64,000 nt of DNA from Sulfurimonadaceae bacterium (GTDB lineage: Bacteria > Campylobacterota > Campylobacteria > Campylobacterales > Sulfurimonadaceae). The stretch is taken from positions 64,418 to 128,417 of the forward strand of contig JBFFKK010000001.1 in NCBI GenBank assembly GCA_041555445.1, in the 5' to 3' direction. The notes under the pieces were generated by a model. It made no database searches, was not told where the DNA came from, and saw only the letters and a list, made by a program, of their open reading frames with translations. Each line of letters opens with the position of its first letter. Position 1 is the stretch's first letter. Shown here piece by piece: positions 33,968-61,134 of the stretch. The position numbers and the translations under genes are program-made.

Positions 33968-34396
33968 CTACTGCTTCGAAAACCGTAAGAGGCTCTCTCC
34001 GTTGGCGCGCAGTTCAAGCCCGCCTTTATCATCGATCGCATAGTTGTCGACACGAACAAGCCGCTGAAGGAACTCTCTTTCAAGAGCCATCTGAGGACAG
34101 GCCATCATCGTCGACATCCCCTCTTTAAAACGAATCTCAGAACCTTCTGTCGTGTAGCTTCCGAAGATCTGATTGCAGCCCCCTTTTCCGCTGTAACGTG
34201 CATCCTTAAAGGTCAGATAGGCGTTTTCCGGCACGGCCATGCGCGTCAAACCGAAACCGACCAGTTTCCATTGGACCCCTTCGAGTTGCTGCGAGGAGCG
34301 TTCAGCCACCCTATCTTGATCTGCTACAGGCGATGACGTATTGCAGCCTGAAAATAACAGGGCAAACACCAAAATGAAAAAACCGCTTTTATACAT
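33968..34396 (-). CDS. META-domain (HslJ-like) lipoprotein
   Basis: 142 aa with lipobox LLFSGC. The META motif is GGCNQIFGSYTTEGSEIRFKEGMSTMMACPQ...EREFLQRL. It begins 8 nt after the upstream KS gene. Confidence 0.75.
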   Translation of the reverse strand: MYKSGFFILVFALLFSGCNTSSPVADQDRVAERSSQQLEGVQWKLVGFGLTRMAVPENAYLTFKDARYSGKGGCNQIFGSYTTEGSEIRFKEGMSTMMACPQMALEREFLQRLVRVDNYAIDDKGGLELRANGESLLRFSKQ

Positions 34397-34404
34397 AAGG
34401 TCTC

Positions 34405-35628
34405 CTAGTCAGTCAATTTTTCAAACACAATGGCCGCATTGGTCCCGCCGAAACCGAAATTACAGCTCAGCACGCGCTGCACTTCTGTTCTGACCGCACT
34501 GTTTTTGACAAGGTTGAGCGCTTCCATCTCTTCTTCGCTCTCTGCATAGTTAATGACCGGCGGCAGCACGTTCTGTTGCATCGCCATAATGGAAACGACC
34601 GCTTCTATGGCGCCCGCGGCACCTAAGGTATGACCGACCTGCCCTTTGATCGAGCTCACGTAGGGGCGCATATCCCCAAAGACCGTCGCAATTGCTTTTG
34701 CCTCACGGACGTCATTGTAAAAGGTACTGGTACCATGGGCATTGATGTAGTCGATCTTCGGCTCTCCGGCCATCTCAAAAGCGTCGCGGATCGCACTGAT
34801 GGCCCCGCGTGATTCCGGCTGCGGCGTGGAGATGTGATAGGCATCGGCACTCTCGCCGAAACCGGTGATCTCGGCATAGATCCTCGCACCCCGTTTTTGG
34901 GCATGTTCCAGTGTCTCCAGTACAAGCGCGCCAGCGCCCTCGCCCATCACGAAACCGCTGCGTTCTTTGTCAAAAGGCCGCACCGCCTCTTTGGGGTTGT
35001 CATTATGGTCTTTGCACAGCGCATTCATCGCACCGAACCCGCCGAGTGCCAGCGGTGTGACACCCGCCTCGGCACCCACGACGATCATCCCTTCGCCTTT
35101 GGAGAACTGCAGTGTTTTATAGGCTTCGATGAGGGCATGTGTTCCTGCCGCACATGCCGTGTTCTCGCTCAGGTTCGCACCCCTGAGGTCAAACTTCATC
35201 GAGACCTGGCCTGCCAGCATGTTCGGCATATAGGAGGGGATAAGAAAAGGTGAGATATGGGACAGTTTGGAGCTGTTTTTAATGTCTGCCGCCTCTTCGA
35301 TCGAGCCGATACCCACAAGGCAGTTGGCACTGACGACACCGAATGCGGTGGTGTCGACCTCATCCAAAGAGGCATCTTCATACGCTTCCATCGCAGCGTG
35401 CAGCCCCAGTTGGATAAAACGGTCCGCCTTCTTCTGCTCCCGTTTTTTCATCACCGTCGCCGCATCAAAGTCCTTCACCTCTGCGGCGATCTTGCACTCG
35501 AGTTCGCTGCTGTCACAGAGGGTGATTTTGTCAATCCCGCACTCACCGTCGATGATGGCCTGAAACGACTCTTTTGAGTGTCCAAGGGCATTGATCATAC
35601 CAAGACCGGTCACAACAATACGCTTCAA
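34405..35628 (-). CDS. beta-ketoacyl-ACP synthase (FabF-like KS)
   Basis: 407 aa. Active-site Cys in NTACAAGTHAL, plus NAHGTST and GHTLGAAG. It overlaps the upstream hydrolase gene by 4 nt. Confidence 0.85.
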   Translation of the reverse strand: MKRIVVTGLGMINALGHSKESFQAIIDGECGIDKITLCDSSELECKIAAEVKDFDAATVMKKREQKKADRFIQLGLHAAMEAYEDASLDEVDTTAFGVVSANCLVGIGSIEEAADIKNSSKLSHISPFLIPSYMPNMLAGQVSMKFDLRGANLSENTACAAGTHALIEAYKTLQFSKGEGMIVVGAEAGVTPLALGGFGAMNALCKDHNDNPKEAVRPFDKERSGFVMGEGAGALVLETLEHAQKRGARIYAEITGFGESADAYHISTPQPESRGAISAIRDAFEMAGEPKIDYINAHGTSTFYNDVREAKAIATVFGDMRPYVSSIKGQVGHTLGAAGAIEAVVSIMAMQQNVLPPVINYAESEEEMEALNLVKNSAVRTEVQRVLSCNFGFGGTNAAIVFEKLTD

Positions 35629-36767
35629 AGGAGCCCCCCTTTGATCTCTTGAATAAGACGGTCGCTCCAGGCATCGATGTCCGTCTCCGTCTGCGAGGTC
35701 AAGATGACAAAAGAGATGTCATATTTCGGGTAGATCCGCATGATCGTCCTGTAGCCCGGTCCGAGACCCTGATGCTGGTAGTAGAACTCCCCTTTGTCAT
35801 TGATGTGGTACCAGCCTATCCCGAAACTGATCTCCTCCTGCGGTGCGAGAAAGGAGTCGACTTTGACGGTCGGCGTCTCCAAGAAGACCTTTTTGGTCTT
35901 CTCATCGATCAGTTTGCCGTTGTTATAGGCGGAGAGGAAAAGTGCCATGTCGTGAACAGGGGCGACAAGCCCGCCGGCAGCCAGCCATCCGATATCAAAC
36001 TGTTTAAGCCACTGCGTCGTCCCGTCCCAATGGTCCTTGTTGGCACTGTCCATAAACATGCGCATCGCAATACCGGTGATCGAGAACATCTTCATTGTTC
36101 CGTAGACCTGATCTTTTGCCATCGCATCGGTGTAGGTAAACCCGCTTCGCATCATCTGCGCCGGTTCGACCACACGCTCCATCACCATCTCGCCGAAGTC
36201 CTCACCCGTCGCTTTCTCAATGATCCGGCTCAGGATGATGTACTCCGCGCTTGAGTATTTGGCCTCGCTCCCCGGCAGATAGGGCAACTCGATATGATCA
36301 GCGGTCTCTATGCCGCTCGTTTTGGTATAGGCATAATAGTTGTCATCTGTCAGCGGCCGCACCTCTGATGAGCGGTCATTGATACCCGAACTGTGGTTGA
36401 GCAGGTTTAAGACGGTGACCGTGACCTCTTTATCCTCATACATCGCTTTAAATCGCGGAAGGTACTTTTGAACGGGGTCATCCAGTGAAAGGACCCCTTC
36501 GTTGACAAGCTGCATTGTCACCGTTGCCGCCAATATCTTGGTCAGCGAAAAAACATGATAGACACTCTCTAAAGAGGTGGCCTGTTTTCTGGCCGAATCG
36601 TTAAAACCGAAACTGCTCTCATAGAGGATCTTGTCGCCTTTCAGAATAGCAAACGAAGCCGAAGGCGGAGTCTGATCATTGATCTCCTCGCGTACAAAAC
36701 GCTCAAAACTCTCTACGCCGCCGAACAGGTTCAAGCCGATAAGAAGCGTCAAGAGGAGCGTTTTCAT
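35625..36767 (-). CDS. exported serine hydrolase of the beta-lactamase (class C/esterase) fold
   Basis: 380 aa. Signal peptide MKTLLLTLLIGLNLFGG. SxxK motif FSLTK. Length and YxN-type region are consistent with the family. Confidence 0.8.
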   Translation of the reverse strand: MKTLLLTLLIGLNLFGGVESFERFVREEINDQTPPSASFAILKGDKILYESSFGFNDSARKQATSLESVYHVFSLTKILAATVTMQLVNEGVLSLDDPVQKYLPRFKAMYEDKEVTVTVLNLLNHSSGINDRSSEVRPLTDDNYYAYTKTSGIETADHIELPYLPGSEAKYSSAEYIILSRIIEKATGEDFGEMVMERVVEPAQMMRSGFTYTDAMAKDQVYGTMKMFSITGIAMRMFMDSANKDHWDGTTQWLKQFDIGWLAAGGLVAPVHDMALFLSAYNNGKLIDEKTKKVFLETPTVKVDSFLAPQEEISFGIGWYHINDKGEFYYQHQGLGPGYRTIMRIYPKYDISFVILTSQTETDIDAWSDRLIQEIKGGLL

Positions 36768-37972
36768 CTGCGGACCTTTTTCCCCATACTGTTCTTCTCG
36801 ATACCTTTGACATGGACAAGTTCGAAACTGAAGTTGATCTCCGGATAGTAGCGTTTAAAAAGCGCTCTGACATCGTTTTCGTTCGGCATCTTGCGCCCCG
36901 CTATCTGAATCTCGAGACTCTCGTCTTTGAGTTTGGCACTGTCGCTTTTAATGGTGATCAGCGCATCTGTGACCCCCAAATCATTTTCGATGATGTTTTC
37001 AAGTTCGACGATCGATATGCGCTTTCCGGAGACTTTAATGATCTCATTGGCGCGGCCAAGCAGTTTGAACTTTCTGCCTTCGAGTTCGATGATGTCCGTC
37101 GTCGTATAGGGACGTTTCATCAGCGTGATCTTCTCTTCAAAAAGATGGCTGGAGAGGTAGGGTGAATCCACCACCATACGCGACTCATGGTTCTTGGTCA
37201 CCGAAACACCATGAAGCGGTTCCCAGTAGGGGTTTGTTCCTCTTTTTATCGCCACGCCGCCTGTCTCCGTCGAACCAAAGAGCTGGATGATCCGCGTGTT
37301 GTACTGCTTCTCGAAACGCTCGACCTCATCTTCTGTCAACAGCCCGGTCGATGACAGGAAAGTCACATTGTTCAGGTCATGCTCGCGTTTAAGACGCAGC
37401 AGTGCTTTGATATAGACAGGGCTGGTCACCACCAGGCTCTTTTTATCTTCGTGCAGCAGGGTCAGCTCTTGCGGGTAGTACTCCTCTTTCAACAACAGTT
37501 CACACCCCAGGCGTCTCGGCAGCATCAGACCGGAGAGAAATCCGTAGATATGGATAAAAGGGACCGTCACAATGATGCGTTCAAAGTTCTCGGGCGCAAA
37601 GATCGCCTTCAGTGCATCAAGTTCGCCTTCGATGTTCTCTCTGTTTTTGATCGCCCCTGTCGGCACCCCGGTTGTCCCCGATGTAAAGAAGAGTGCGTAC
37701 GTTGATGCCGGCAGTGCGGCGCTGTCATTTTTGTGGTCATAAGAGGCAATACCCAACTCTTTAACGCGGGCGTCGATCTCTCCGATATTGTGATCATACA
37801 GGACAGGCGTCACACCCTGTTCAATCGCCTTGTGAAGGAGTCCGAACAGTTCCGGTTTGGTATGGGCACTGAACGTCGCCTCTTTGGTTGCCAGGATCTC
37901 CTGTTTCTCCTGGATCTCTTCTAATGTCGTGTCGTTTCTAATGCCGGCATTGTCAATATGGATAATATTCAT
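36764..37972 (-). CDS. AMP-dependent synthetase/ligase (short acyl/aryl-adenylating enzyme)
   Basis: 402 aa. The P-loop-like motif is FFTSGTTGVPTGA, with Thr where Lys is usual. Also GSTETGG and a C-terminal GKKVRR. Confidence 0.8.
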   Translation of the reverse strand: MNIIHIDNAGIRNDTTLEEIQEKQEILATKEATFSAHTKPELFGLLHKAIEQGVTPVLYDHNIGEIDARVKELGIASYDHKNDSAALPASTYALFFTSGTTGVPTGAIKNRENIEGELDALKAIFAPENFERIIVTVPFIHIYGFLSGLMLPRRLGCELLLKEEYYPQELTLLHEDKKSLVVTSPVYIKALLRLKREHDLNNVTFLSSTGLLTEDEVERFEKQYNTRIIQLFGSTETGGVAIKRGTNPYWEPLHGVSVTKNHESRMVVDSPYLSSHLFEEKITLMKRPYTTTDIIELEGRKFKLLGRANEIIKVSGKRISIVELENIIENDLGVTDALITIKSDSAKLKDESLEIQIAGRKMPNENDVRALFKRYYPEINFSFELVHVKGIEKNSMGKKVRR

Positions 37973-38147
37973 ACAGTCTACTTTATATTTTTTAAGTCTA
38001 ATATTTATAATACAAGATGGCTTATAGAGAGGTATAGAAGAGATGTTAATTCGCTATTATAATACGATATCGAAGATCGGTACACGCCGTTTCCTGAATC
38101 ACACCCGTTATCCGTCTGTTATAGGCATCGTATCGACAATGCCACTG

Positions 38148-40280
38148 CTATCGTTTTTGCACTGTCTGCAGTACAAACGTCGAAGCAATGCCCAGCGCGA
38201 TCACCAGGCCGATGTGATGCAGTGCTCCGATATGGCTAAAGACAAAGATTCCGAAACCGGCGAAGGTGGTGAGCATGGCGTAGTAGATCGCTTCGTCTGT
38301 CTCCTCTTTGACATCGCTCATGTAGATGCCGTAGTCGATGGCTGCTACCATCACGATGATGAGTGCAAAAAGATGCATCACCGAGAATGAACCGAGCAGC
38401 GCCAGCGTTACAGCGATGACACCAAGAGGAAAGAGGACATAGTTCATGGCAATCAGGGCCCGTTCTTTCAACAAAACGACGAGCAGAAGCGAAATGAATC
38501 CAAAGGTCAGTGCCGCAATGACGACAAGCTGATCCAAAACATCTTCCACGCCTTTTTGCAGCAGCGTAGAGGCTTCCAACAACACCAGGTCGTCATCATA
38601 AGGAAGTGCATCGGCCTCGCTTGCATCAATAAAGGCCAGGCTCATCCACCTTCCGTCATCAAGTTGCAGGGTCTCAAAGCCCAAGGCTTTGGCGACGGCC
38701 AGATCCGGTTCGCTGTAGGTTATGTTGTCGGCAAACCGGTACGCGGCGCTGAAGGTGCCGCTGCGAAACCCCACCTGGGTCGCTACACGCTCCAAAGTCT
38801 CGCGCAGGCTCGAAAAATCGATCGCTTTGACGTTATTGGCATACGCGTCAAACCCCTCTTTCGACCTGTTTATCTTAGCCAAAGAGCGGAATGAAGCGTT
38901 CTCTTTCTGAACGGCTTCCATCTGTACGAGAAGGTCATCCAAAGCGTGTCCGTAGACCAGCACCGCACGCTCATCTGAGCCGCCGCTTTTGATCTTCTCC
39001 TGCAAGGCGAGAAGTTTAGTATTTTGATAGTCAAGCTGACGGAGGTCACCGCTGAAACGCAGTTGCGAGAAAGCCGCCGCGAGCAGCAGCAAGGAGAACA
39101 CCAACACCGTTTTAGAACCGATGAGCCCTTTTGAGAGGGCCCGGAGCCGAAACCGTTCGGCCTTGGGTTCAAACTGCCAGGAGGCAAACAAAAAGCTGAA
39201 CTGAAAGTAGGAAAAAGCCAGGGCGGCGATCCCAAAGAGTGCCAGCTGCTGGATCAGCGGGAAGTCTGCAAAGTAAAGGATGCCGAAACCGCTTAGCGTT
39301 GTCAAAAAAGCGTAAAAGACCTTTTTGCGGCTCTTCTCTTTACCGGTGTAATAGCCGTGAAAATAGTAATGGAAAAAGTAATCCACCGCCATCATCGCAA
39401 TACCGGAGCCAAAGGCAAGCGTAAAGATGGAGACCTCCGGAAAGATAAAAGTGACTGCGGCAAGGCCGGCAAAAAGCGAAGAACCCAGGGCAACGGAGGT
39501 CAGCAACAGGACTTTAAAATCGCGCAGGGTAAAGGCGTAAAAAAGCAGCAGCAGTATCATCGTTACGGTGATGATAAGGTTGACTTCACTTTTTATTTTG
39601 GCAGCATTCTCGGCCGTAAAGAAATGCGGTGCAAACGCGGTTACATCGCTGCCGTAACCGTCGACGATGGCGTGCACCTCGTCGTACAGTTTTTGTGATC
39701 CTTCCACATCGGCCACGCTGATCTTGAGGGTTGCCGTCAGCATATAGCTCTCACCGTTGAAAAGCGCGATACCGTTTTTGCTTTTGGCCCCCGTCTGCTG
39801 CATCGGATCGCTGAAAAGCCCCAGCGGATCAGAGGTGTTGAGACCGCTGAAGAGAAAAGAGCTCTGCATTTCGTTGTAGAGGCTCTTTAGCCGTGCTTCG
39901 ATGTAGGCTGGCGAGGTTCTTGAGCTGTTCAGGTCAAGACGCTCTGCATAGTGTTTACGCAAATACGCCGCAGTCGGCGAATGGATACTGTCGACTTTGA
40001 AGAACAGCTCCTCGATCCCTTCTGTTGCCTGCAGCTTCGCCGCTATCGTCTCCAGACGCTCTTTGGAAGCAGTGTCACTCCCCTTTGAGATGACCATCAG
40101 ACGGTTGAGCGTCTGCAGTTGCGAAGCGTCTTCGAGCTGTTTGGTGTAGCTGTTCTGCGGAAAAATGGCGAGCATGTCGGTACTGAAATGTGAGGGCGAG
40201 AAGAGAAGTCCCGCCGAGAGCATAATGCTCAGGTAGATAAAAGCGTAGAGCTTATTGGGCAATAAAGAGCGTAATTTCAT
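38148..40280 (-). CDS. MMPL/RND-superfamily exporter
   Basis: 710 aa. Two blocks of about 5-6 TM helices are each preceded by a large soluble loop. This is the architecture of the predicted exporter found in aryl-polyene loci. Confidence 0.8.
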   Translation of the reverse strand: MKLRSLLPNKLYAFIYLSIMLSAGLLFSPSHFSTDMLAIFPQNSYTKQLEDASQLQTLNRLMVISKGSDTASKERLETIAAKLQATEGIEELFFKVDSIHSPTAAYLRKHYAERLDLNSSRTSPAYIEARLKSLYNEMQSSFLFSGLNTSDPLGLFSDPMQQTGAKSKNGIALFNGESYMLTATLKISVADVEGSQKLYDEVHAIVDGYGSDVTAFAPHFFTAENAAKIKSEVNLIITVTMILLLLFYAFTLRDFKVLLLTSVALGSSLFAGLAAVTFIFPEVSIFTLAFGSGIAMMAVDYFFHYYFHGYYTGKEKSRKKVFYAFLTTLSGFGILYFADFPLIQQLALFGIAALAFSYFQFSFLFASWQFEPKAERFRLRALSKGLIGSKTVLVFSLLLLAAAFSQLRFSGDLRQLDYQNTKLLALQEKIKSGGSDERAVLVYGHALDDLLVQMEAVQKENASFRSLAKINRSKEGFDAYANNVKAIDFSSLRETLERVATQVGFRSGTFSAAYRFADNITYSEPDLAVAKALGFETLQLDDGRWMSLAFIDASEADALPYDDDLVLLEASTLLQKGVEDVLDQLVVIAALTFGFISLLLVVLLKERALIAMNYVLFPLGVIAVTLALLGSFSVMHLFALIIVMVAAIDYGIYMSDVKEETDEAIYYAMLTTFAGFGIFVFSHIGALHHIGLVIALGIASTFVLQTVQKR

Positions 40281-40737
40281 CGCCGTTACTCATCTTGGTC
40301 ATGATCTTCTCCAGCCCTTTGGCACTGCGGTGGACCACAACAGATTTTATCACTTTGTCCACCGGGGCGATCGGGGTCAGCATCACCACCGTAGTCGTTT
40401 GTTTGATCGTGAAATTTTCACTCAAAGCTGCATAATCGCCGCGATAGAGCTTATGGATAAAGTCCATGTAGACCTTCATCATCGGCTGTTCGTTGAGATC
40501 GACATGCTGTAGGGTATTGCCGCCGGCATCGGTGACATCCATGTAGGCGCCGTCATAGCTGATATGACGCCGTTCGGGTTCCGTATACTCTATCTTCATC
40601 CCTCTGTCGTCAAAAGTGATCGCGCCTTTCATGGTTAAGGACTTGTCGATACTGTAGATATAGCGCTCTTCTTTGAAGTTGTAACTGCCGGCAAAAAGCA
40701 TCATAAACGTCAGAAAAAGTAGTAGCGTTATCTTCAT
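40252..40737 (-). CDS. LolA-like periplasmic lipid/lipoprotein carrier-fold protein
   Basis: 161 aa with a signal peptide and beta-rich sequence (FKEERYIYSIDKSLTMKGAITFDDRGMKIEYTEP). Its position next to the MMPL gene matches that in ape/flexirubin loci. The assignment is partly contextual. Confidence 0.55.
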   Translation of the reverse strand: MKITLLLFLTFMMLFAGSYNFKEERYIYSIDKSLTMKGAITFDDRGMKIEYTEPERRHISYDGAYMDVTDAGGNTLQHVDLNEQPMMKVYMDFIHKLYRGDYAALSENFTIKQTTTVVMLTPIAPVDKVIKSVVVHRSAKGLEKIMTKMSNGDEITLFIAQ

Positions 40738-41474
40738 GCAAAATTCCTTGTCACTTCTGTCTGCATCACCTCTCTGACACGGCGCATCACAGAGCGTACA
40801 CTCTCATCTTCCTGAGGGTAGATCGGGTCCAGAAATGTCACCGCGATGTCGGTTTTTTGCTGGGTCTTGGCGATGTTGGAGCCTTTTGAGACAATCCGGC
40901 CCGTACCGTCGATAATCACCGGAACAATAGGCAGCTTGTTGTCGACACTGAGACGGAATGCCCCTTTTTGAAAGGGCAGCAGCGTGTCGGAGTAGTTGCG
41001 GGTTCCTTCGGGGAAGATAAAGACATTGACATTGTTTTGCAGCGCTCTGGAGAGTCGGTTAAAAACGGTAATCGCTGCATTGGGGTTATGTTTTTCCATA
41101 TAATAGACGCCCACCAGACGGGGGATCCGCAGAAAGATCGGCAGATCGCTGATGGGGTGGTTGGAGATCGTTGCGAAGTTCTGGATCATGCTTCCGAGCA
41201 GAACAAAGTCGATCGATGACTGGTGCGAAGCGACATAGATAGCGGGTTTACAGCTGTTCAGGTTCTCCCTGTTGTTGATGGTAATATCACCGATAACCGG
41301 AGATGCCCTCAAGAACATGCGCCAGAAAAAGCGGACGACCACCTGAAACGACCAGCGCGGGTCACCGCCGAAAATCCAGACTGGCAGGGTGAACGCGCCG
41401 GCGAAAACAAGAGCCAGGAGCATCAGAAAGATAAAAAGCCCGTAGATATAGGCGCTTAACAGTTTACTTGACAC
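40734..41474 (-). CDS. lysophospholipid (PlsC-type) acyltransferase
   Basis: HX4D motif ASHQSSIDF, plus FPEGTR and PIVPV. I chose the GTG at 41474, an 11-nt overlap with the upstream gene, over the track start at 41573. Confidence 0.8.
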   Translation of the reverse strand: MSSKLLSAYIYGLFIFLMLLALVFAGAFTLPVWIFGGDPRWSFQVVVRFFWRMFLRASPVIGDITINNRENLNSCKPAIYVASHQSSIDFVLLGSMIQNFATISNHPISDLPIFLRIPRLVGVYYMEKHNPNAAITVFNRLSRALQNNVNVFIFPEGTRNYSDTLLPFQKGAFRLSVDNKLPIVPVIIDGTGRIVSKGSNIAKTQQKTDIAVTFLDPIYPQEDESVRSVMRRVREVMQTEVTRNFA

Positions 41475-41985: not shown

Positions 41986-41992
41986 TAAAGGC

Positions 41993-43467: not shown

Positions 43468-43470
43468 CTT

Positions 43471-44172: not shown

Positions 44173-44173
44173 C

Positions 44174-45694: not shown

Positions 45695-45859
45695 CTATTT
45701 TCCCGTAAAACTGTGACTAGATGGTGCTTTAATAGACATACATGAATAAAAAAGGTGCCCAAATATAACAGTTGTAAATATTTTTTTGTATTCTAGCACT
45801 CCAACCTAATAAATTGACTGAAGTTATCCATGCGTACGCCCATAATTTACGCTGCTATT

Positions 45860-48924: not shown

Positions 48925-48928
48925 CGTA

Positions 48929-49916: not shown

Positions 49917-49930
49917 GTAACAGTTATCTC

Positions 49931-53732: not shown

Positions 53733-53738
53733 TACACG

Positions 53739-54008
53739 CTACTCAGGCTGGATATAGTCGGCAAGATTGTTGATGGTCGTCACGACGCGGCGAAAATCTT
53801 TTGAGTCGCCCAGACGGATCTTAAACTGGTTTTGCAGCCCCATTGAGATCTGCAGCGCATCCAAAGAATCCAGTTCCAGGCCGCTTTTGTCGGAAAACAG
53901 TTCGACATCATCGGCCACCTCTTCCGGCGTGATATCCTCTTTTTCACACTCCTCGATGATCATCGTTTTTAGACGCAACTTCAGTGCATCATCTTGGGAA
54001 CCTATCAT
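53739..54008 (-). CDS. acyl carrier protein
   Basis: 89 aa with GLELDSLDALQI. Confidence 0.8.
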   Translation of the reverse strand: MIGSQDDALKLRLKTMIIEECEKEDITPEEVADDVELFSDKSGLELDSLDALQISMGLQNQFKIRLGDSKDFRRVVTTINNLADYIQPE

Positions 54009-55195
54009 GCCACTCTCCTTATCTTATAATTAAATACCCCTGCTGCTATGATGAGCGAGACCACGCCAAACAGCAGCAGCCCCACCGCTTCATACAGCAC
54101 ATCGCTGAGATTGCCGCGGCGCAAAAAGACGTCCAGGAAACCCTCAAGGCCCCATGACATCGGTGAGACATTGGCAAAATCCTGCATAAAGTCCGGCATA
54201 ACGAATTTCGGGACCATGACACCGCCGATCGCCCCCAGAAGTATGTTGATAATGCCGCCGATCGTCGTCGCCTGCTCAACACTGTCGACGATCACTGCGA
54301 TCAGGATCGAAAGCCCGATAGCCGAGAGACTCAAAGAGAGTGATACGGCCATCAAAGCCGTGATATCACCCCCGATGGTCAACGGTGCCGCTCCGAAAAG
54401 CGGTACGATGAACATGCCGACCGCGATCATCACCCAGACCTGCAGCTGGTTGATCAGCATATAAGGGATGATCTTTCCGCCAAACAGGACCGCCAGCGAG
54501 ACATTCATCGTACTCAGACGCATCAAGGTGTTCTGTTTGCGCTCGCTGATAAAGATCGTCGACATCGGTATGATGACAAAAAAGAGACCGAAGACGATCC
54601 ACGACGGCACACTCTGCTGGGTCGATGTCGGCTTTTCATCTTCCTCCAGCGCGGCGTAATGGATCTTCATCATGCTTGCTTCGTCAAATTCTATTTTTTT
54701 TGCCTCTGTCTCATGACCGCGCATGCCGGCCTGCATCTCCTGCGCCAGGTTGACAGCATCCAGTCGCACCTGCATGACACTGCTCAATATCTGCGTTTTG
54801 AAGAGCATCAGGTGACTCTGCCCGATATCCGAGGCCACTTCAATCTGAAGTGCCGAATTGTTGGCTTCGCTCTGTGTAAACTGGGACTTGAACCCTCGCG
54901 GTATGACAACGATAAACTGGACACCCTCTTCTTTCGGTGTCGCAAAGGTGTCGCTGATATTATGCTCGTTCATCAGTTTGTTGGCACGGAGCTTGGATGC
55001 CAGGGAGAAGCTCTCGAGAGAGTTGTCCCTATCGACGACCGCGTATTCGATCAGCGCCTTCTCTTCGTTAAAGACATCTTTGAGTGCCAATGACATGATA
55101 AGGATAAAGACGGCCGGCATCACAAACAGTGCCGCAAGCGCGTGTTTGTCACGAGAGACCAGCAAGAACTCTTTGATCAGCATCGCCTTAAACAT
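54005..55195 (-). CDS. ABC-2 type transporter permease
   Basis: 396 aa. N-terminal TM, a large external loop, then five C-terminal TM helices. It overlaps the ATPase gene by 8 nt. Confidence 0.8.
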   Translation of the reverse strand: MFKAMLIKEFLLVSRDKHALAALFVMPAVFILIMSLALKDVFNEEKALIEYAVVDRDNSLESFSLASKLRANKLMNEHNISDTFATPKEEGVQFIVVIPRGFKSQFTQSEANNSALQIEVASDIGQSHLMLFKTQILSSVMQVRLDAVNLAQEMQAGMRGHETEAKKIEFDEASMMKIHYAALEEDEKPTSTQQSVPSWIVFGLFFVIIPMSTIFISERKQNTLMRLSTMNVSLAVLFGGKIIPYMLINQLQVWVMIAVGMFIVPLFGAAPLTIGGDITALMAVSLSLSLSAIGLSILIAVIVDSVEQATTIGGIINILLGAIGGVMVPKFVMPDFMQDFANVSPMSWGLEGFLDVFLRRGNLSDVLYEAVGLLLFGVVSLIIAAGVFNYKIRRVA

Positions 55196-56111
55196 CAGCC
55201 CGTCCTTTCGATGTCAGGTTGATAAACAGTGACTCCAGCGTGGTTGTGCCGTATCGGATATTGCGCACAGCAATATCATTCGCTTCAAGCAAGGCCAGTG
55301 CCTCGCCAACATGAGCGCTCGCTTTGCCTTTGAGCATCAAAGACCCCTCGTCGATAACCCGCAACGTTTCCATCGTATTGCAACACGTTTGCAACTGGGC
55401 CAACGGTGTCTCATACACCTCGATAATGATCTCATCGGCACTCTCGTTGCTCAGCATACTTTCGATGCTGCCCTGCTTGATGATCTTTCCGGCATTGATG
55501 ATCGCCACCTCGTCACAGATCTTCTCGATCTCCGGCATGTAATGCGAGGTGTAGACGACCGTCTTGTTGGCCTCTTTGAATGACATGATCGTCTCCAATA
55601 TCTCGTTACGCGATTCCGGGTCGATACCGACGGTCGGTTCATCAAAGAAGAGGATATCCGGATCGTTAAGCAGACCGATAGCGATGTTGAGACGGCGTTT
55701 TTGTCCGCCTGAAAGGGTGGCCGCTTTTTGGTGCAGCATGGAGCCCAGACGGTTGGTCTCTACAGCATATGCGATGTTTTTCTTCAACGCCTCCGCGTCG
55801 ATGTTCTGGATGCCGCCAAAAAAATTAAGGTTTTCGATAACCGTAAGGTTTTCATAAAAAGCGAGTGTCTGGGGGATAAGCGCACACCGCTTGCGGATTG
55901 CCGGCAGCTCTTTGTTCAAAGGAAGGCCGAAGAGACGCACCTCGCCCTCGTCATATTTTGTCAAACCGTTGAGTATCGATATCAACGTTGTCTTGCCCGC
56001 ACCGTTTGGCCCTAAAAGACCGAAGATCGTTCCCGCTTTTATCTCCAGGGTGAGATGGTCAAGTGCCACCTTTTCACCATAACGCTTGAGCAGGTTTGTG
56101 ATCTTGACCAT
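55188..56111 (-). CDS. ABC transporter ATP-binding protein
   Basis: Walker A GPNGAGKTT, signature LSGGQKRRL, Walker B ILFFDEPT, and H-loop SHYM. Confidence 0.9.
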   Translation of the reverse strand: MVKITNLLKRYGEKVALDHLTLEIKAGTIFGLLGPNGAGKTTLISILNGLTKYDEGEVRLFGLPLNKELPAIRKRCALIPQTLAFYENLTVIENLNFFGGIQNIDAEALKKNIAYAVETNRLGSMLHQKAATLSGGQKRRLNIAIGLLNDPDILFFDEPTVGIDPESRNEILETIMSFKEANKTVVYTSHYMPEIEKICDEVAIINAGKIIKQGSIESMLSNESADEIIIEVYETPLAQLQTCCNTMETLRVIDEGSLMLKGKASAHVGEALALLEANDIAVRNIRYGTTTLESLFINLTSKGRADV

Positions 56112-57115
56112 TAGAACGCCGTCAGCATTTTCTTGTAGACCGTTGCCTCTTCATCGGCAATGGATTCAAGTTTTTTGGCGATCGCATCGAAATCGACCGT
56201 CTCGCTCTTCTTGGAACGGATCGATTTGGCGATCAGAAGCGCGAACTCGCGCCAGCTGTCACCGACTGCCGTCATCATCTCCGAGGATTCCAGCAATGTC
56301 TCGTTGCCAAGAATCTTTCCGCTCTCTTGTAAAAACGAGGCATAGATGTAACGGAAACCGGCACCGCCGGTACCGATCTCTTCTTGCATTCTGACGATAT
56401 GCCCCAAAAAGAGCCTGGCATAACGGCGATCTTTGGACTCCAGTTTACGGATCGCTTTCGCCAGCGTCCGTATCCCTTTCAGACCGGCTATCGGGACCGG
56501 CGTCTTCAACATTCGCTTGGCCACCGTTTTAACCGCTTTGGGCACAACGCGTTCATAATCGATCGATTCCGGAACATACACCGGGTAATAGAGCGCCCCT
56601 TTAGGTGCCATGACGCCTTTGGCAAAACGTGCTTTCGAAAACTCTTTTTCATTGGCTTCGACCACATCGTCAAGTACCGGATCGCTGATCTTGTAGATAT
56701 CTTCCTGCTTTCCGTAGACAAGCAGATTGTGGCCGTTAAAGTGAAAACGCATCTCTTCAGGCAGATACGGCAACCAGAACACCGATGTCTGTGCGCCGAC
56801 GATCTTCCCCTCGTTTAAGAGGGCATCAAGACGCTCTTCCCCCTTCTTCGGCTGCGAAAACGTTTCGATCTTCATCTTGACACCGAGGTTTTTCTGCAAC
56901 CCTTTGATGATCGCTTTGGGAATCGATCGGTAGGCGATCAACGGCATACCGGCCAGCTTGATAAACGGCAGATAGGCGAATGTCAAAGCACTTGAGAGGC
57001 CAAACGCCATCGGTTCGCTCAAGGGCAGACCATGATGCGACAGCATCGTCGACATCACGCCGCTTTCGCAGTGTCCGGCGTGTTGGTGTGTAAACTCTTT
57101 AGATGGAACTGACAA
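56111..57115 (-). CDS. BtrH N-terminal domain (papain-like acyltransferase/peptidase fold) protein
   Basis: 334 aa. HQHAGHCESGVMSTMLSHHGL matches the BtrH_N-type N-terminus with a candidate catalytic Cys. The family call is from memory. Confidence 0.65.
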   Translation of the reverse strand: MSVPSKEFTHQHAGHCESGVMSTMLSHHGLPLSEPMAFGLSSALTFAYLPFIKLAGMPLIAYRSIPKAIIKGLQKNLGVKMKIETFSQPKKGEERLDALLNEGKIVGAQTSVFWLPYLPEEMRFHFNGHNLLVYGKQEDIYKISDPVLDDVVEANEKEFSKARFAKGVMAPKGALYYPVYVPESIDYERVVPKAVKTVAKRMLKTPVPIAGLKGIRTLAKAIRKLESKDRRYARLFLGHIVRMQEEIGTGGAGFRYIYASFLQESGKILGNETLLESSEMMTAVGDSWREFALLIAKSIRSKKSETVDFDAIAKKLESIADEEATVYKKMLTAF

Positions 57116-57523
57116 TTAGGACTCTCTTTCTGGTAGTTGTTTTAACATCTCGACAGTGATCCCCATCACATCGGCGTAACGTGCCAGCAGCTTATCTGAA
57201 AGTTTGGCAAAAACGGCCGGTCTGAAGTGACGTTTGATCCGCCATTGAAAAAGACCGGTTGCCTGCGACAGGGAGAGAAGATCAAGACGTTTGTTATACA
57301 TGTGAAATTCCAGCGGGGAGGCCTCACCGTTAACACAGGCCTCATACGCTTCATCAGCCAATCGTTCCAGCTCTGCTACCGCCTGTTGGGTCGCCTCTTC
57401 TTCGACATTCCAACCGCTCGAAGCAACAACGCCGTATTCGCCGTTCTCGCCTGTTGCGTAGATGGCACGTTTGGCACCACGATAGATGCTGTTATTATCT
57501 TGAGGGACCTCTTGCTCTTTCAT
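57116..57523 (-). CDS. hypothetical protein (135 aa), possible helix-turn-helix C-terminal half
   Basis: It is tightly packed between the KASIII and BtrH-like genes. LSLSQATGLFQWRIKRH...LLARYADVMGITVEML looks HTH-like. No firm family assignment. Confidence 0.45.
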   Translation of the reverse strand: MKEQEVPQDNNSIYRGAKRAIYATGENGEYGVVASSGWNVEEEATQQAVAELERLADEAYEACVNGEASPLEFHMYNKRLDLLSLSQATGLFQWRIKRHFRPAVFAKLSDKLLARYADVMGITVEMLKQLPERES

Positions 57524-57525
57524 GC

Positions 57526-58674
57526 TCAGACAACCTCTAGCTGCATAAAGGCTGTTGAGAAACGGCCGCTTTCTGGGATGTAGCAGAGCAGTTTCTCACC
57601 CGCATTCAGCTTTCCGGAGTGAAAAAGCTCTTCAAGCATGATATAGATCGATGCGGAACCGGTGTTGCCTTTGTATGGCAGATTGGTAAACCACTTATCC
57701 TGGGCGATGTCACAATTCGCCTCTTTCATCCCCGCGTAGACTTTGTCACGGAAGTAGCCCGACGAGTAGTGCGGTAGAAAATAACTGATCTCATCCGGGT
57801 TCAACGTCCCCTTTTCAACCAGCTCCTGCAGCGGTTTGGTCACCGTATATTCGATGATCTTCTCGTTCAGAAGCTTGACATCCTGCTTGACCGAGAAGAT
57901 AGACTGTTCCAGCCACTCATGCGGTTTATACTCACGCCACCCCTTGATACTGCCGTCTTCTAGCTTCTCGCAGCCGGCATACATACAGGCATCAAGCTCA
58001 TTCGCATACGACTTTTGAACGATCCAGTCGATCTTGAGCGAGATACCTTCTGCGTTCGGCTGATCGCTCATCAACACTGCACCGGCACCATCGCTGAGCA
58101 TCCAGCGCAAAAAGTCCTTCTCAAACGCGATCTCCGGCTGACGTTCCAGTTTCTCGACCCGCGCGTCGACCTCTTCTTCAAAGTTTTGCGCGCGCATGAC
58201 CGAAGACGCATTCTCAGAACCTGTTGTAACGGCGTTTTTGGTTTGACCGCTCAATACCGACATATAGCCGTATTTAAGCGACATTGTTCCGGAGAGACAG
58301 ATACCTGCCGTTGCGATCACTTCACAACTGGGGATCCCCAGTTCGCCGTGAACCATCAAAGCATGGTTTGGCAGCAGCTGGTCGGGCAGCGTCGTCCCGC
58401 ACGACAGCAGCTCGATCGTATTGATGTCAAAGGTGTCTGAATGAAGCTTGCGGATCGCTTCTGCCGCTATCTGCGCATTGGTATGCGTCGTCTCACCGCT
58501 CTTTTTGTCAATGGCATAGTGGCGAGACTTGATCTGATTGGAACGCAAAATAAGTTTTTTGGCACGAGAGGGGCGTACTCCGACCTGACCCAGTACCTCT
58601 TCAATCTCACTGTTACTGACCGCTTCGTTCGGCAAAAATGCCTGAATATTATTTATATAAACGTTTTTACTCAC
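57526..58674 (-). CDS. darB: KASIII (FabH-like) condensing enzyme, DarB-like
   Basis: 382 aa. Thiolase-fold KASIII with Cys in ATAGICLSGT and a C-terminal NTGSASI. It lies adjacent to a DarA-like gene. Confidence 0.75.
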   Translation of the reverse strand: MSKNVYINNIQAFLPNEAVSNSEIEEVLGQVGVRPSRAKKLILRSNQIKSRHYAIDKKSGETTHTNAQIAAEAIRKLHSDTFDINTIELLSCGTTLPDQLLPNHALMVHGELGIPSCEVIATAGICLSGTMSLKYGYMSVLSGQTKNAVTTGSENASSVMRAQNFEEEVDARVEKLERQPEIAFEKDFLRWMLSDGAGAVLMSDQPNAEGISLKIDWIVQKSYANELDACMYAGCEKLEDGSIKGWREYKPHEWLEQSIFSVKQDVKLLNEKIIEYTVTKPLQELVEKGTLNPDEISYFLPHYSSGYFRDKVYAGMKEANCDIAQDKWFTNLPYKGNTGSASIYIMLEELFHSGKLNAGEKLLCYIPESGRFSTAFMQLEVV

Positions 58675-58682
58675 TACTCTCG

Positions 58683-59597
58683 CTACCTTCCAGATGGTTC
58701 TTCATAGTATTTTACACTCTTTTCAATCGCCTCTTTACGCCATGGATAGATCAGTTTTCTGACCAATATGTTCAACGGCACGATCGTCAACACCAGGGTT
58801 GCCAAAAACAGTGCATAGATCGTAATGACGATCTTGCGCGCAAATGAACCGGGCTTACCCGCTTTTTGGATCAGTTTGCCCCAGACCATAAAAGAGCGTG
58901 TCGCAATCTTCTCTGTACCCACCAGTTTGCCGTTAACCGTCACGGCGCCCATCTTTTTCAGCAGCGGCTCTTTTCTCTTCTCTTCGTCATTTCCGAGTGC
59001 CTCAAGCAGACGGCGGCCAAAACGGGCACTCTCTTTCATGTCCGTATCCGAAACACCGGCAGCCGGGAAGCCCCAGAAAGGGTCTTTTTTACCGGTCAGC
59101 AGCCATCTCGGCGTGGTAATAAAGGCATAGATCGAACCGCCCTGGTCCGTCAATACGACATTGTCGATGAGGGTCCCACCGACACCGCTGATAAGCTTTT
59201 TCATCTTCTCCTGCGCCATGACCCACATATCTCTACAGGCGATCAGTGTCACAACGGGCTTGTCTTTGAACAGCTGTTTGGCCTGCTCGCTCTGCATAAA
59301 CCCCGTCACGGGGATAGACGGGGCCAGGAACCAGATGGTATACCCCAAGATGATCAGATCATAATCATCTGCGAGATCCTCTATCGGTTTAACAGCGCAG
59401 CCATTCATATAGATCGCTTCGGGAAACGCATCAAAAAATGGATAAAACGGCCATGGATATGGGTACTTTACTACCGGTTCTATTGCACGATAATCGACTT
59501 GTATTTCATCATTGGCTTTTAACGGTCCTGTTACAGACTCCACCATCTTTGTCAACTGACCACTCTGCGAATAATAAAGAACTAAGACTCTTTTCAT
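58683..59597 (-). CDS. darA: DarA-like dialkylresorcinol condensing enzyme (flavodoxin-like N-terminus, C-terminal TM)
   Basis: I trimmed the start to ATG 59597 (MKRVLVLYYSQSGQLTKM...). The protein is ~305 aa with a C-terminal TM (IVITIYALFLATLVLTIVPL). The pairing with KASIII is the DarAB signature. The family call is from memory. Confidence 0.65.
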   Translation of the reverse strand: MKRVLVLYYSQSGQLTKMVESVTGPLKANDEIQVDYRAIEPVVKYPYPWPFYPFFDAFPEAIYMNGCAVKPIEDLADDYDLIILGYTIWFLAPSIPVTGFMQSEQAKQLFKDKPVVTLIACRDMWVMAQEKMKKLISGVGGTLIDNVVLTDQGGSIYAFITTPRWLLTGKKDPFWGFPAAGVSDTDMKESARFGRRLLEALGNDEEKRKEPLLKKMGAVTVNGKLVGTEKIATRSFMVWGKLIQKAGKPGSFARKIVITIYALFLATLVLTIVPLNILVRKLIYPWRKEAIEKSVKYYEEPSGR

Positions 59598-59750
59598 AAC
59601 CACCCATAAATCTACCAAAAATTTTAAGTAGAATTTTACCCTATGTGCCCATAAAATATAATAAGTTCTGTTTTTGCGACCCAATATTTTTTCAGTGCAT
59701 ATAGAGGTCATCTCTATTATAATAGGCCTATAACTCTCTGAAGGAAATAT

Positions 59751-60821
59751 ATGTTTGACACTGATAAGCTTAGTTCGCTGGATGCACTGATGGAGGCGCA
59801 AAAAATTGCGCATGCCCCGATCATTTTTCAAGTAGCTAGCCTGCTTCGCGAATGGGGGATTTTAAAACTCCTTCATGAAAACAAAAAAACCGGGATGAGC
59901 GTCGAAGAGCTGGTAGCCGCAACAGACATCAGCGAATACGGTATCAAGGTACTCTGTGAATCAGGCTACAGTATGGGTGCCATGAAATTTACAGACAATC
60001 GGTACTACATCACCAGAATCGGTTTTTTCCTTGCCTATGACGAGATGACAAATGCCAACTTCAACTACTCCCAGGATGTCAACTATTTCGGTATCCATGA
60101 GCTGGGTGATGCCATTAAAGAGGGGCGTCCTGCCGGTCTGCAAAAATACTTCAACAAAGATTGGGAGACGATCTATCCCTATCTGACCGAGCTTCCGGAG
60201 AAGGCAAAAGAGAGCTGGTTCGGGTATGACCACTTCTATTCCGACTCCGCCTTTAAAACCCTGGTCGACCTGATGGCAGAGCGCAGACCGAAAAAGATCC
60301 TCGATATCGGCGGTAATACCGGAAAGTGGGCGATCGCGATCACCTCCGCTTCGCCGGAGACCGAAGTGACCATCTGTGATCATCCGCTGCAGATCAAGAC
60401 CGCCTTTGCCAATGCCGAAGAGGCGGGTGTAAAAGAGAGGGTTCACGGGGAGGTCATGGACCTGCTTGACCACTCTAAACCGTTTCCCAAGGGCTTCGAC
60501 GTCGTCTGGATGAGTCAATTCCTGGACTGTTTTCCGCCCGAAGACATCATCGCCATTCTACAACGCGCAAAAGAGGCCTTGAGCGAAGATGGGCGTATCC
60601 ATATCATCGAGCCTTATTGGGACCGTCAGCAGCATGAGATCGGTGCCTACATCCTTATCAACTGTTCACCCTACTTTACCGCCTTGGCCAATGGAACGAG
60701 CAAGATGTACCGCGCTGAAGATATGCACGAATATATTGCGGCTGCAGGCTTGGAAGTGGATGAAGAGATCGACAGGTTGGGTTTTGGTCATACAATGACC
60801 TCGTGTAAGAAAAAAAGCTGA
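59751..60821 (+). CDS. SAM-dependent O-methyltransferase (family 2 type with N-terminal dimerisation/wHTH domain)
   Basis: 356 aa with the SAM motif ILDIGGNTGKWA and an acidic loop ICD. RBS AAGGAA. Confidence 0.8.
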   Translation: MFDTDKLSSLDALMEAQKIAHAPIIFQVASLLREWGILKLLHENKKTGMSVEELVAATDISEYGIKVLCESGYSMGAMKFTDNRYYITRIGFFLAYDEMTNANFNYSQDVNYFGIHELGDAIKEGRPAGLQKYFNKDWETIYPYLTELPEKAKESWFGYDHFYSDSAFKTLVDLMAERRPKKILDIGGNTGKWAIAITSASPETEVTICDHPLQIKTAFANAEEAGVKERVHGEVMDLLDHSKPFPKGFDVVWMSQFLDCFPPEDIIAILQRAKEALSEDGRIHIIEPYWDRQQHEIGAYILINCSPYFTALANGTSKMYRAEDMHEYIAAAGLEVDEEIDRLGFGHTMTSCKKKS

Positions 60822-60876
60822 TCAAAAACCCTTTCTGTAAAAGAGAGGGTTTCAAGATAGCGCAGAAACAGAGTAT

Positions 60877-61134
60877 TTACGCCTTTTTCTGCTCGTTAAT
60901 AAAGTTACAGAGTGATTCGGCCGTTGCAAAGATCGTCTCTGCATCGGCAATATTTGTCACTTTGACACCAAACTCTTTCTCGATCACCAGTGTCAATTCG
61001 ATCGCATCGACAGAGTCAAGACCAAGACCGTCATCACCAAAAAGCGGATCCGTATCGCTGATCTCGCTTGCATCAATATCTTCTAGATTGAGACCTTCTA
61101 TGATTTTCTCTTTTAAAACATCAGTAGTTACCAT
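60877..61134 (-). CDS. acyl carrier protein
   Basis: 85 aa with GLGLDSVDAIEL. This is the fourth free-standing ACP in the locus. Confidence 0.85.
   Translation of the reverse strand: MVTTDVLKEKIIEGLNLEDIDASEISDTDPLFGDDGLGLDSVDAIELTLVIEKEFGVKVTNIADAETIFATAESLCNFINEQKKA

Follow-up and report, generated by a model that had tools for sequence, protein, structure and literature searches.

We have examined a 64 000-nucleotide stretch of DNA from a Sulfurimonadaceae bacterium (hereafter the window; contig JBFFKK010000001.1, positions 64,418 to 128,417), in which 31 contiguous genes fill the 27 kb between positions 33968 and 61134, as defined by an open reading frame (ORF) listing together with Pfam and NCBIfam scans. 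We interpret this locus as a complete and chromosomally fixed flexirubin-type biosynthetic gene cluster that consists of two fused modules, one for an aryl polyene and one for a dialkylresorcinol (DAR), and we put the probability of this interpretation at about three in four. An earlier reading of the same DNA, made without database searches (the sequence-only reading), had also proposed a flexirubin-like aryl-polyene plus dialkylresorcinol type II locus of about 27 kb. That proposal is upheld by synteny with loci of Bacteroidota and with the ape cluster of Escherichia coli, and by the match of the ketosynthases (KS) to known structures. Furthermore, all of the gene classes that it had listed are present at the positions it gave, as judged by Pfam and NCBIfam models, by motifs and by comparison with ape.

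The aryl-polyene module comprises 34405-51675 plus 59751-61134, and the DAR module consists of the nine genes of 51739-59597. Most of the 31 genes overlap or almost abut, and all but three (28/31) lie on the minus strand. The identity of each gene, with its principal support, is as follows.

33968-34396, minus: META-domain lipoprotein (Pfam META, 90 bits; signal peptide with LFSGC lipobox)
34405-35628, minus: FabF-like KS with a Cys-His-His triad, an accessory gene in part of the lineage
35625-36767, minus: secreted S12 serine hydrolase of the beta-lactamase fold (Pfam Beta-lactamase, 183 bits; SLTK motif; signal sequence)
36764-37972, minus: ApeH-like adenylating enzyme, predicted starter activation (Pfam AMP-binding)
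38148-40280, minus: ApeM-like exporter of the MMPL/RND type, 710 residues (full-length match to E. coli ApeM, E 8e-16)
40252-40737, minus: ApeL/LolA-like periplasmic carrier, 161 residues (blastp to ApeL, E 3e-4; signal peptide)
40734-41474, minus: PlsC/ApeD-like lysophospholipid acyltransferase (Pfam Acyltransferase, 91 bits; 28% identity to ApeD)
41464-41985, minus: polytopic membrane protein, 173 residues (no family match)
41993-42232, minus: acyl carrier protein (ACP), ApeF-like (Pfam PP-binding; 38% identity to ApeF; DSL motif)
42232-43467, minus: ApeR-like KS (NCBIfam PRK09116, 473 against a cutoff of 470)
43471-44172, minus: ApeQ/FlxB-like ketoreductase of the FabG type (Pfam adh_short_C2; 39% identity to ApeQ)
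44174-45694, minus: aromatic amino-acid ammonia-lyase of the 4-methylideneimidazole-5-one (MIO) type, predicted starter supply (Pfam Lyase_aromatic, 489 bits)
45860-46567, minus: family 2 glycosyltransferase (GT2), equivalent to the N-terminal half of ApeJ (Pfam Glycos_transf_2; 36% identity to ApeJ)
46722-47954, plus: FADH2-dependent halogenase (Pfam Trp_halogenase; WIWNIP and GGGPAG motifs)
48064-48924, plus: LpxL-like acyltransferase, equivalent to the C-terminal half of ApeJ (Pfam Lip_A_acyltrans; E 9e-13)
48929-49258, minus: ApeI-like dehydratase subunit, hot-dog fold, 109 residues (Pfam FabA; ApeI, E 5e-5)
49255-49662, minus: second hot-dog protein, 135 residues (fold from AlphaFold; no sequence-family match)
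49662-49916, minus: ACP, ApeE-like (Pfam PP-binding; 42% identity to ApeE)
49931-50575, minus: ApeC-like chain-length factor (CLF), 214 residues, without the Cys (Pfam Ketoacyl-synt_2; 35% identity to ApeC)
50572-51675, minus: ApeO-like KS (38% identity to E. coli ApeO)
51739-52593, minus: DarK-like, Cys-less KS-like protein (weak Pfam ketoacyl-synt; position of Azoarcus darK; 47% identity to Aliivibrio)
52590-53732, minus: DarJ-like KS (Cys-His-His; best Protein Data Bank (PDB) match 6QSP_A; position of Azoarcus darJ)
53739-54008, minus: DarC ACP (Pfam PP-binding; position of Azoarcus darC)
54005-55195, minus: ABC-2 permease (Pfam ABC2_membrane_3; position of Azoarcus darI; 69% identity to Aliivibrio)
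55188-56111, minus: ABC ATPase (Pfam ABC_tran; position of Azoarcus darF)
56111-57115, minus: BtrH-related acyltransferase, called DarH in NCBIfam and darE in Azoarcus (Pfam BtrH_N and DUF4872; NCBIfam DarH_acyl, 494 against a cutoff of 300)
57116-57523, minus: DarG-family protein (position of Azoarcus darD; NCBIfam DarG_fam, 177 against a cutoff of 70)
57526-58674, minus: DarB, KASIII-like (NCBIfam StlD/DarB, 619 against a cutoff of 450)
58683-59597, minus: DarA, aromatase (named homologues and synteny)
59751-60821, plus: ApeB/FlxJ-like methyltransferase dependent on S-adenosylmethionine (Pfam Methyltransf_2 and Dimerisation2)
60877-61134, minus: fourth ACP, ApeE-like (Pfam PP-binding, 35.7 bits; 41% identity to ApeE)

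The condensing enzymes separate this locus from ordinary fatty-acid synthesis. By alignment, all four KS (34405-35628, 42232-43467, 50572-51675 and 52590-53732) retain the Cys-His-His triad, and the active-site Cys is absent from two shorter partners (49931-50575 and 51739-52593), as the sequence-only reading had described. In a neighbour-joining tree without support values, which included ApeO, ApeR, FabF and FabB-type references, the KS at 42232 falls with ApeR, the KS at 50572 with ApeO and the KS at 34405 with E. coli FabF, and the KS at 52590 is placed with KS genes adjacent to dar genes, which form a clade of their own. Thus, three of the four belong to ApeO, ApeR or DarJ clades. The sequence-only reading had treated the four KS and the two CLF-like partners each as a single set, and that grouping needs revision: 52590-53732 is the DarJ and 51739-52593 the DarK of the DAR module, and 34405-35628 is a FabF-like accessory. 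The ApeO:ApeC-type KS:CLF pair is present, with the Cys in the KS and none in the CLF; the best PDB matches of the KS at 50572-51675 are 7F28_B (AbApeO, 180 bits) and 6QSP_A, and those of its partner at 49931-50575 are 7F28_A (AbApeC) and 6QSP_B. The identities of these entries, AbApeO-AbApeC (7F28) and XdApeO-ApeC (6QSP), and of AbApeR (7F27) were confirmed in PMC8358021. Similarly, the best PDB match of the KS at 42232-43467 is 7F27 (374 bits, against about 272 for FabB). This KS is 43% identical to E. coli ApeR, and its proteobacterial and myxobacterial homologues (43-49% identity) are closer than those of Bacteroidota (35-37%).

The KS at 34405-35628 is of a different kind. It reaches 489.4 with the NCBIfam FabF model (cutoff 493.75) and 535 with PRK08439, the beta-ketoacyl-ACP synthase II model on which it scores best (cutoff 621), so that it lies under both cutoffs, and its neighbours are the serine hydrolase and the AMP-ligase rather than acpP. 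The gene overlaps the next one by 4 nt. Although it groups with FabF, it is a variable accessory gene and probably not the housekeeping one: among three related loci described below, it is present in L083 and L085 and absent from the otherwise identical L084.

Among the remaining chain-building proteins, the four ACPs bear serine motifs of the DSL or DSV type and comprise one ApeF-like and three ApeE-like proteins (34-42% identity). The ketoreductase scores 254 with the FlxB model, under its cutoff of 340. The orthologue of the ApeI-like subunit in the nearest cultured relative has the Pfam ApeI-like domain. The second hot-dog protein (49255-49662) was modelled with AlphaFold from 26 homologues (pLDDT 85.8), and a Foldseek search with this model returned FabZ (TM-score about 0.73), 4HBT thioesterases and, at rank 35, chain B of 6QSR, the ApeI:P complex. 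The match to ApeP itself is weak (hhalign probability 25%), and the model suggests that this protein is probably an ApeP-like dehydratase partner or a thioesterase.

Of the starter and tailoring genes, the ammonia-lyase bears on the type of cluster. Its MIO motif, ASG, occupies residues 140-142, and the protein scores 360 with the FlxA model (cutoff 700) and 392 with the histidine ammonia-lyase (HAL) model (cutoff 524). Its selectivity motif is F-H, as opposed to S-H in the Bacteroidota lyases of loci L008 and L009, to which it is 33-35% identical. An attempt to derive the substrate from this (Watts) selectivity motif was abandoned as unreliable, because FlxA is a proven tyrosine lyase even though its motif 1 resembles HAL enzymes (paper on FlxA), and the motif therefore cannot name the substrate. 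The AMP-ligase shares 28% identity with E. coli ApeH along 251 residues (E 1e-18) and weakly matches the 4-coumarate-CoA ligase model TIGR02372 (72 bits, cutoff 335). The halogenase finds 3NIX in the PDB (325 bits), followed by 5BUK ('FADH2-dependent halogenase'), ChlB4, PltA, 5BUL and 5BVA ('flavin-dependent halogenase') and CmlS; it is present in L083, L085 and L015 and absent from L084 and from an Arcobacter locus (L004). The methyltransferase is 41% identical to ApeB along its whole length (355 residues) and is most similar to the FlxJ family, with whose model it scores 437 (cutoff 560). The sequence-only reading had called it an O-methyltransferase. A methyltransferase it is, but given its kinship to ApeB and FlxJ and the methionine-derived methyl that flexirubin carries on its ring (paper on FlxA), that name is only a Pfam family label, and by analogy with flexirubin the enzyme may methylate a ring carbon rather than an oxygen.

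The genes for lipid attachment and export complete the polyene module. The MMPL plus LolA-like pair of the sequence-only reading was well founded for the exporter, in view of its full-length ApeM match, whereas the LolA-like protein resembles ApeL only moderately (hhalign probability 56%, E 1e-4, 133 columns). Neither protein has a Pfam match; the hydropathy profile of the exporter has an N-terminal transmembrane segment and two transmembrane bundles with large loops between them. The LolA-like gene overlaps the exporter gene, as in E. coli. The PlsC gene probably spans 40734-41474 rather than the longer ORF, because its relatives have 246-250 residues. The 173-residue membrane protein is kept in L002 and in L083-L085; as a candidate for ApeG it was rejected (hhalign probability 0.2%).

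Within the DAR module, the StlD/DarB, DarG-family and DarH models all score above their cutoffs, as given in the list, and the flexirubin_DarG and DarB exception models lie below theirs (135 against 170, and 539 against 550). DarA matches no NCBIfam or Pfam model. Its close homologues are named 'dialkylresorcinol condensing enzyme' by NCBI, and wherever DarB occurs in the compared loci, DarA lies beside it. As these homologues have 304 residues, the DarA start is taken as M79 of a 382-residue ORF; the KASIII/DarA-like pair of the sequence-only reading is thus DarB and DarA, and the listed ORF of DarA, 58683-59831, extends too far upstream. In Azoarcus, the order is darA, darB, darD (conserved hypothetical), darE (BtrH-like), darF (ABC ATPase), darI (permease), darC (ACP), darJ (KS) and darK (hypothetical), with a toxin-antitoxin pair inserted (Schöner et al., 2014, PLoS One 9:e90922; PMC3949708, Table 1). 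From 59597 down to 51739 the window has the same nine genes in the same order by domain type, and sequence-level support comes from Aliivibrio. This order is what assigns the KS of 52590-53732 and its neighbour without the Cys (51739-52593) to the resorcinol module rather than to a second polyene KS:CLF pair.

The organism, a sulfur-oxidising member of Campylobacterota, is a relative of Sulfonitrofixus jiaomeiensis HSL3-7, which carries the same locus. In the complete genome of this strain (deposited as Sulfurimonas sp. HSL3-7, and now Sulfonitrofixus jiaomeiensis, Sulfurimonadaceae, in the NCBI taxonomy) the proteins are 84-88% identical. In the HSL3-7 locus (L090; G+C 0.496) the order runs clpS-clpA-aat-ACP-methyltransferase-DarA-DarB and onward, with ClpA 90% identical and the fourth ACP in the same position. 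In the window, one flank consists of a PilT-family ATPase gene (31657-32844; TIGR01420, 431 against a cutoff of 319) and the transaldolase gene tal (32848-33885), and the other of aat (61203-61877) followed by clpA (61874-63898), as in the sequence-only reading. In the loci of three further relatives (L083-L085), the other end of the cluster also runs into tal and pilT. Identity to the window's serine hydrolase and G+C content are 86% and 0.47 in L085, 52% and 0.57 in L083, and 44% and 0.35 in L084. The chromosomal site is thus the same in relatives with 44-88% protein identity and a genomic G+C of 35-56%, and a single site throughout so deep and compositionally diverse a lineage indicates that the cluster is not a recent island. 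The G+C content of the cluster itself (0.504-0.513) is flat against that of the flanks (0.504), on which the sequence-only reading had based the same conclusion. The survey of relatives confirms that the locus is kept at one site in L083-L085 and L090, with varying gene content. In a scan of a genome collection, the nearest relatives of the KS at 50572 were found in Campylobacterota metagenome-assembled genomes (MAGs), namely Helicobacteraceae CSMAG_478 (89%), a Sulfurimonas (58%), Arcobacter MAG-3 (57%) and Sulfurospirillum BB15 (56%), followed by identities of at most 40% in Bacteroidota and others.

One of the flanking genes is itself disrupted. The transaldolase gene (32848-33885, minus strand) has a single in-frame TAG at 33340-33342, within a conserved stretch (IFSKEQAL-stop-CAEAF), and L083-L085 have an intact gene of 323-327 residues in the same place. 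A nonsense mutation, pseudogene formation and an error in the assembly are all possible causes of the split.

The sequence-only reading had raised the possibility that such a locus might be new to the phylum, and this did not hold. 'Flexirubin', 'fused' clusters have been tabulated in three Epsilonproteobacteria, namely Arcobacter nitrofigilis DSM 7299 (locus tags Arnit_2308-2331), Sulfurospirillum barnesii SES-3 (Sulba_2237-2263) and S. deleyianum DSM 6946 (Sdel_2097-2124) (PMC3949708, Table S7), and the colonies of S. deleyianum owe their yellow colour to a flexirubin-type pigment (Zöphel, 1991), the only precedent for the pigment in the phylum. With the listing of 2014 and the pigment report of 1991, the locus is not new to the phylum as a kind. 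According to the Table S7 legend, a phenylalanine or histidine ammonia-lyase (PAL/HAL) gene in a polyene-associated cluster marks the flexirubin type. The window falls into the same class: it has a lyase with the Lyase_aromatic domain and the ASG motif, GT2, PlsC and LpxL genes recognised by Pfam, an ApeM-like exporter with moderately supported LolA-like partner, and darA and darB homologues both inside the locus. What is new is small, and comprises the cluster in Sulfurimonadaceae, where it had not been reported before, a periplasmic serine hydrolase added in this lineage and a DAR module that is closer to that of Aliivibrio. We found no mention of such a cluster in the literature on Sulfurimonadaceae, and the words pigment, yellow, polyketide and secondary metabolism are all absent from the paper describing strain HSL3-7. 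To judge from titles and abstracts, none of the publications retrieved on aryl polyenes in Epsilonproteobacteria or Campylobacterota addressed such a cluster in the phylum. The automatic annotation of NCBI already names DarA in genomes of this family.

The listed Epsilonproteobacteria clusters were set beside the window as tabulated, and direct alignments were made with the MAG loci L004 (Arcobacter) and L005 (Sulfurospirillum). Both share with the window the order DarA-DarB-DarG-DarH-ABC-ACP-DarJ-DarK-ApeO-ApeC-lyase, with 40-64% identity, and they likewise have the dar genes inside the locus; they belong to the same phylum but to another family, and protein identity is about 30-64%. The halogenase is extra in the window relative to L004, and the positions of the S12 hydrolase and of the FabF-like KS fall outside the stretches fetched for L004 and L005. 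In L004 (Arcobacter sp. MAG-3, CP093061.1), about 7 kb of defence or mobile genes (13324-20231: RhuM/Fic, a GHKL ATPase, a receiver domain, an HNH nuclease and an Eco57I-type methylase) split the lyase from the reductase, and a Bro-N gene (6569-7873) separates the ABC permease gene from that of the ACP.

Among Bacteroidota, the flexirubin clusters of Chitinophaga pinensis (flx/dar) and Flavobacterium johnsoniae (Fjoh_1073-1110 region) (PMC3992019) have in common with the window a starter gene of the tyrosine-ammonia-lyase type, several KS, ACPs, a ketoreductase, a dehydratase, DarA, DarB, a ring methyltransferase, and LolA-like, exporter, acyltransferase and glycosyltransferase genes. In Fluviicola (L008) and Pseudozobellia (L010) the DarA-DarB-DarG-DarH-ABC block is conserved at 28-48% identity, and lyase, ketoreductase, KS, methyltransferase, GT2 and LpxL-like genes are shared as well. 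The window differs in having a lyase of another subgroup (F-H as against S-H), and no FlxY- or FlxW-type ligase was identified in it. With scores below the cutoffs of the FlxA, FlxB, FlxJ, flexirubin_DarG and DarB exception models, its proteins are relatives, not equivalogs, of the Bacteroidota flexirubin proteins.

In comparison with the ape cluster of E. coli CFT073 (c1186-c1204, L082), blastp finds window homologues for 13-14 of 18 genes at 24-43% identity, namely ApeB, C, D, E, F, H, I, J, L, M, O, Q and R. The single ApeJ of E. coli corresponds to separate GT2 and LpxL-like genes in the window. Both clusters have the overlap of a LolA-like gene followed by an MMPL gene, and both combine a KS:CLF pair with a second, FabB-like KS. 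No window protein matches ApeA, ApeK (thioesterase) or ApeN (DUF3261) by blastp at better than E 0.005, and no counterpart of ApeG or ApeP is detectable in the window at sequence level. Relative to E. coli, the window is richer by the lyase, the halogenase, two ACPs and all of the DAR module. That module has parallels elsewhere. The dar genes of Azoarcus sp. BH72 (azo0283-0293), which are part of arcuflavin biosynthesis, have a gene order identical to that in the window; unlike the window, Azoarcus has unlinked polyene genes of the xanthomonadin (XanB2) type, and its module is broken by the toxin-antitoxin pair.

The nearest relative of the window's DAR module outside the family is a stand-alone nine-gene module in Aliivibrio wodanis (L089; JBREXA010000002.1, 10001-17872), which has no polyene genes adjacent and is 47-76% identical, compared with 32-64% for the Arcobacter and Sulfurospirillum modules. 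For individual proteins, identity to Aliivibrio and to Arcobacter is 76 and 64% (DarB), 74 and 58% (DarA), 69 and 46% (ABC-2 permease) and 67 and 64% (DarH). These sequence identities suggest a transfer of the DAR module between phyla (Vibrionaceae and Sulfurimonadaceae), and the fact that each copy has the G+C content of its host (0.39 and 0.51) would point to an old one.

A biosynthetic scheme can be proposed from the characterised homologues (PMC3992019, PMC3949708, PMC8358021); substrate, order of steps, ester link, cellular location and expression are all predicted in this way. The MIO lyase would form an aryl-acrylic acid (tyrosine-derived 4-coumarate is the likeliest), which the ApeH-like enzyme would activate and probably load onto an ApeE-like ACP. 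The ApeO:ApeC-like pair and the ApeR-like KS would then extend this starter with malonyl units to give a polyene on the ACP, with the ApeQ-like reductase and the putative dehydratase pair of ApeI-like and second hot-dog protein introducing one conjugated double bond per round, and the ApeB/FlxJ-like methyltransferase and the flavin-dependent halogenase could decorate the ring. In the other module, DarJ/DarK and the DarC ACP would provide fatty-acid-derived precursors for a 2,5-dialkylresorcinol, which DarB would condense and cyclise and DarA would aromatise. The polyene acid would probably be esterified to a resorcinol hydroxyl, with the BtrH-related acyltransferase DarH as the leading candidate enzyme. 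Finally, the LolA-like/MMPL-like pair, the PlsC, LpxL and GT2 enzymes and the ABC-2 transporter are predicted to carry the pigment to the outer membrane.

The modules could instead yield two separate products, with no ester hybrid: an outer-membrane aryl-polyene lipid, as in E. coli and Xenorhabdus, and a free dialkylresorcinol or cyclohexanedione, which would act as a signal or an antibiotic and leave the cell through the ABC-2 transporter. The DAR module does own a transporter, the polyene module has a full set of ApeD/J/L/M-type genes for lipid attachment and export, and the solitary DAR module of A. wodanis, so similar in DarB and DarA, tells us that the two modules need not yield one molecule. 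We nevertheless consider this unlikely. The two modules form one fused locus that persists as such across the family, the published scheme classes fused clusters with a PAL/HAL gene as flexirubin type (PMC3949708), flexirubin and arcuflavin are ester hybrids in the characterised systems, and production of a flexirubin-type pigment has been reported for S. deleyianum. It is quite doubtful, though conceivable, that the Sulfurimonadaceae version is a distinct chemical variant, such as a halogenated polyene-resorcinol pigment that undergoes hydrolytic maturation by a ClbP-like periplasmic enzyme in obligate chemolithoautotroph hosts, or equally a DAR signal independent of the pigment. This idea derives from the coupling of the hydrolase to the starter-activating enzyme, the variable FabF-like KS and halogenase, the F-H lyase and the recent common ancestry of the DAR module with a stand-alone module of Vibrionaceae.

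Two further readings would deny the flexirubin type altogether. The halogenase and methyltransferase are as in xanthomonadin and arcuflavin clusters, and the adenylating enzyme is nearer to ApeH, which handles benzoate, than to 4-coumarate ligase, so that a starter of 3- or 4-hydroxybenzoate derived from chorismate might be imagined. This is very improbable, since a XanB2-type (YjgF/YER057c/UK114-like) chorismatase domain occurs in none of the 31 genes and the PAL/HAL-domain lyase is the published discriminator of the flexirubin type (PMC3949708). That the KS, ACP, reductase and dehydratase genes are merely paralogues from primary fatty-acid synthesis or lipid A remodelling, with no polyene pigment, is scarcely credible. 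The KS at 34405-35628 does group with FabF and almost reaches the FabF equivalog cutoff, the ketoreductase almost attains the FabG model, and PlsC- and LpxL-like genes are present. However, three of the four KS stand apart from FabB and FabF, L084, in other respects identical, has no FabF-like gene, and the KS:CLF partners, the MIO lyase, the halogenase, DarA/DarB and the 13-14 ape homologues are all present.

We therefore prefer a flexirubin-type cluster, and several points weigh against it. For this organism the evidence is genomic, and the published account of the nearest cultured relative, S. jiaomeiensis HSL3-7, mentions no pigment. With the five NCBIfam equivalog models built from flexirubin proteins of Bacteroidota, the proteins of the cluster all score under the cutoffs, which indicates a divergent version of the cluster. 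The F-H motif of the lyase is neither that of tyrosine ammonia-lyases (H-L) nor the S-H of the Bacteroidota lyases in L008 and L009, so the starter could be cinnamate or another compound. To our knowledge, the ester-forming enzyme has been established in no system. The occurrence of the DAR module on its own in Aliivibrio, discussed above, counts here as well.

This work extends a known pigment cluster to one more family, Sulfurimonadaceae, in a phylum that already had both the cluster and the pigment, and it adds one more case to the view that flexirubin-type pigments are not markers of Bacteroidetes (PMC3949708), now Bacteroidota. As the cultured strain S. jiaomeiensis HSL3-7 has the same locus, the prediction is testable. 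Those who study aryl-polyene lipids may find two minor leads here, one in the modular exchange of a DAR block between Vibrionaceae and Sulfurimonadaceae, the other in the periplasmic hydrolase specific to this lineage.

This hydrolase (35625-36767) is a lineage-specific addition to the cluster. All of its 118 detected homologues are from Campylobacterota where named, and none turned up among the flexirubin and ape loci examined from other phyla. Its gene is translationally coupled to the AMP-ligase gene, which it also adjoins in L083-L085, down to 44% identity. Its best PDB matches are Pab87, Flp and ClbP, the colibactin-maturing peptidase. A role as a cytosolic, LovD-like ester-forming acyltransferase is made unlikely by its signal peptide. 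The META-domain lipoprotein at the very edge of the locus is of doubtful membership, since it is missing from the locus in three relatives: in L083 and L085 it does not lie between the KS and tal, and none of the fetched loci has a homologue, among them L084, where the KS is missing as well. Its equation with ApeA was not supported (E 0.005 over 94 residues; ApeA has no Pfam domain).

The rest of the window offers several minor observations; an Rfam scan of the whole window gave no match. An ovothiol gene pair is found at 15204-18493 (minus strand), in a stretch of slightly raised G+C (0.54-0.57). Its OvoA (5-histidylcysteine sulfoxide synthase plus methyltransferase) scores 681 with TIGR04344 (cutoff 400) and 324 with TIGR04345 (cutoff 170), and the second gene encodes a PatB-family C-S lyase (543, cutoff 340). 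Just downstream, at 13576-15217 (minus strand), a gene for a Sir2-family NAD-dependent deacylase adjoins one for an ADP-ribosylglycohydrolase, a pairing that suggests a reversible ADP-ribosylation or deacylation system. A 560-residue ORF at 18709-20391 (minus strand), with no Pfam or NCBIfam match, coincides with the part of the window that is lowest in G+C (0.45-0.46). Finally, the gene at 296-1903 (minus strand) encodes a transglutaminase-like core fused to a 7TM_transglut membrane domain.

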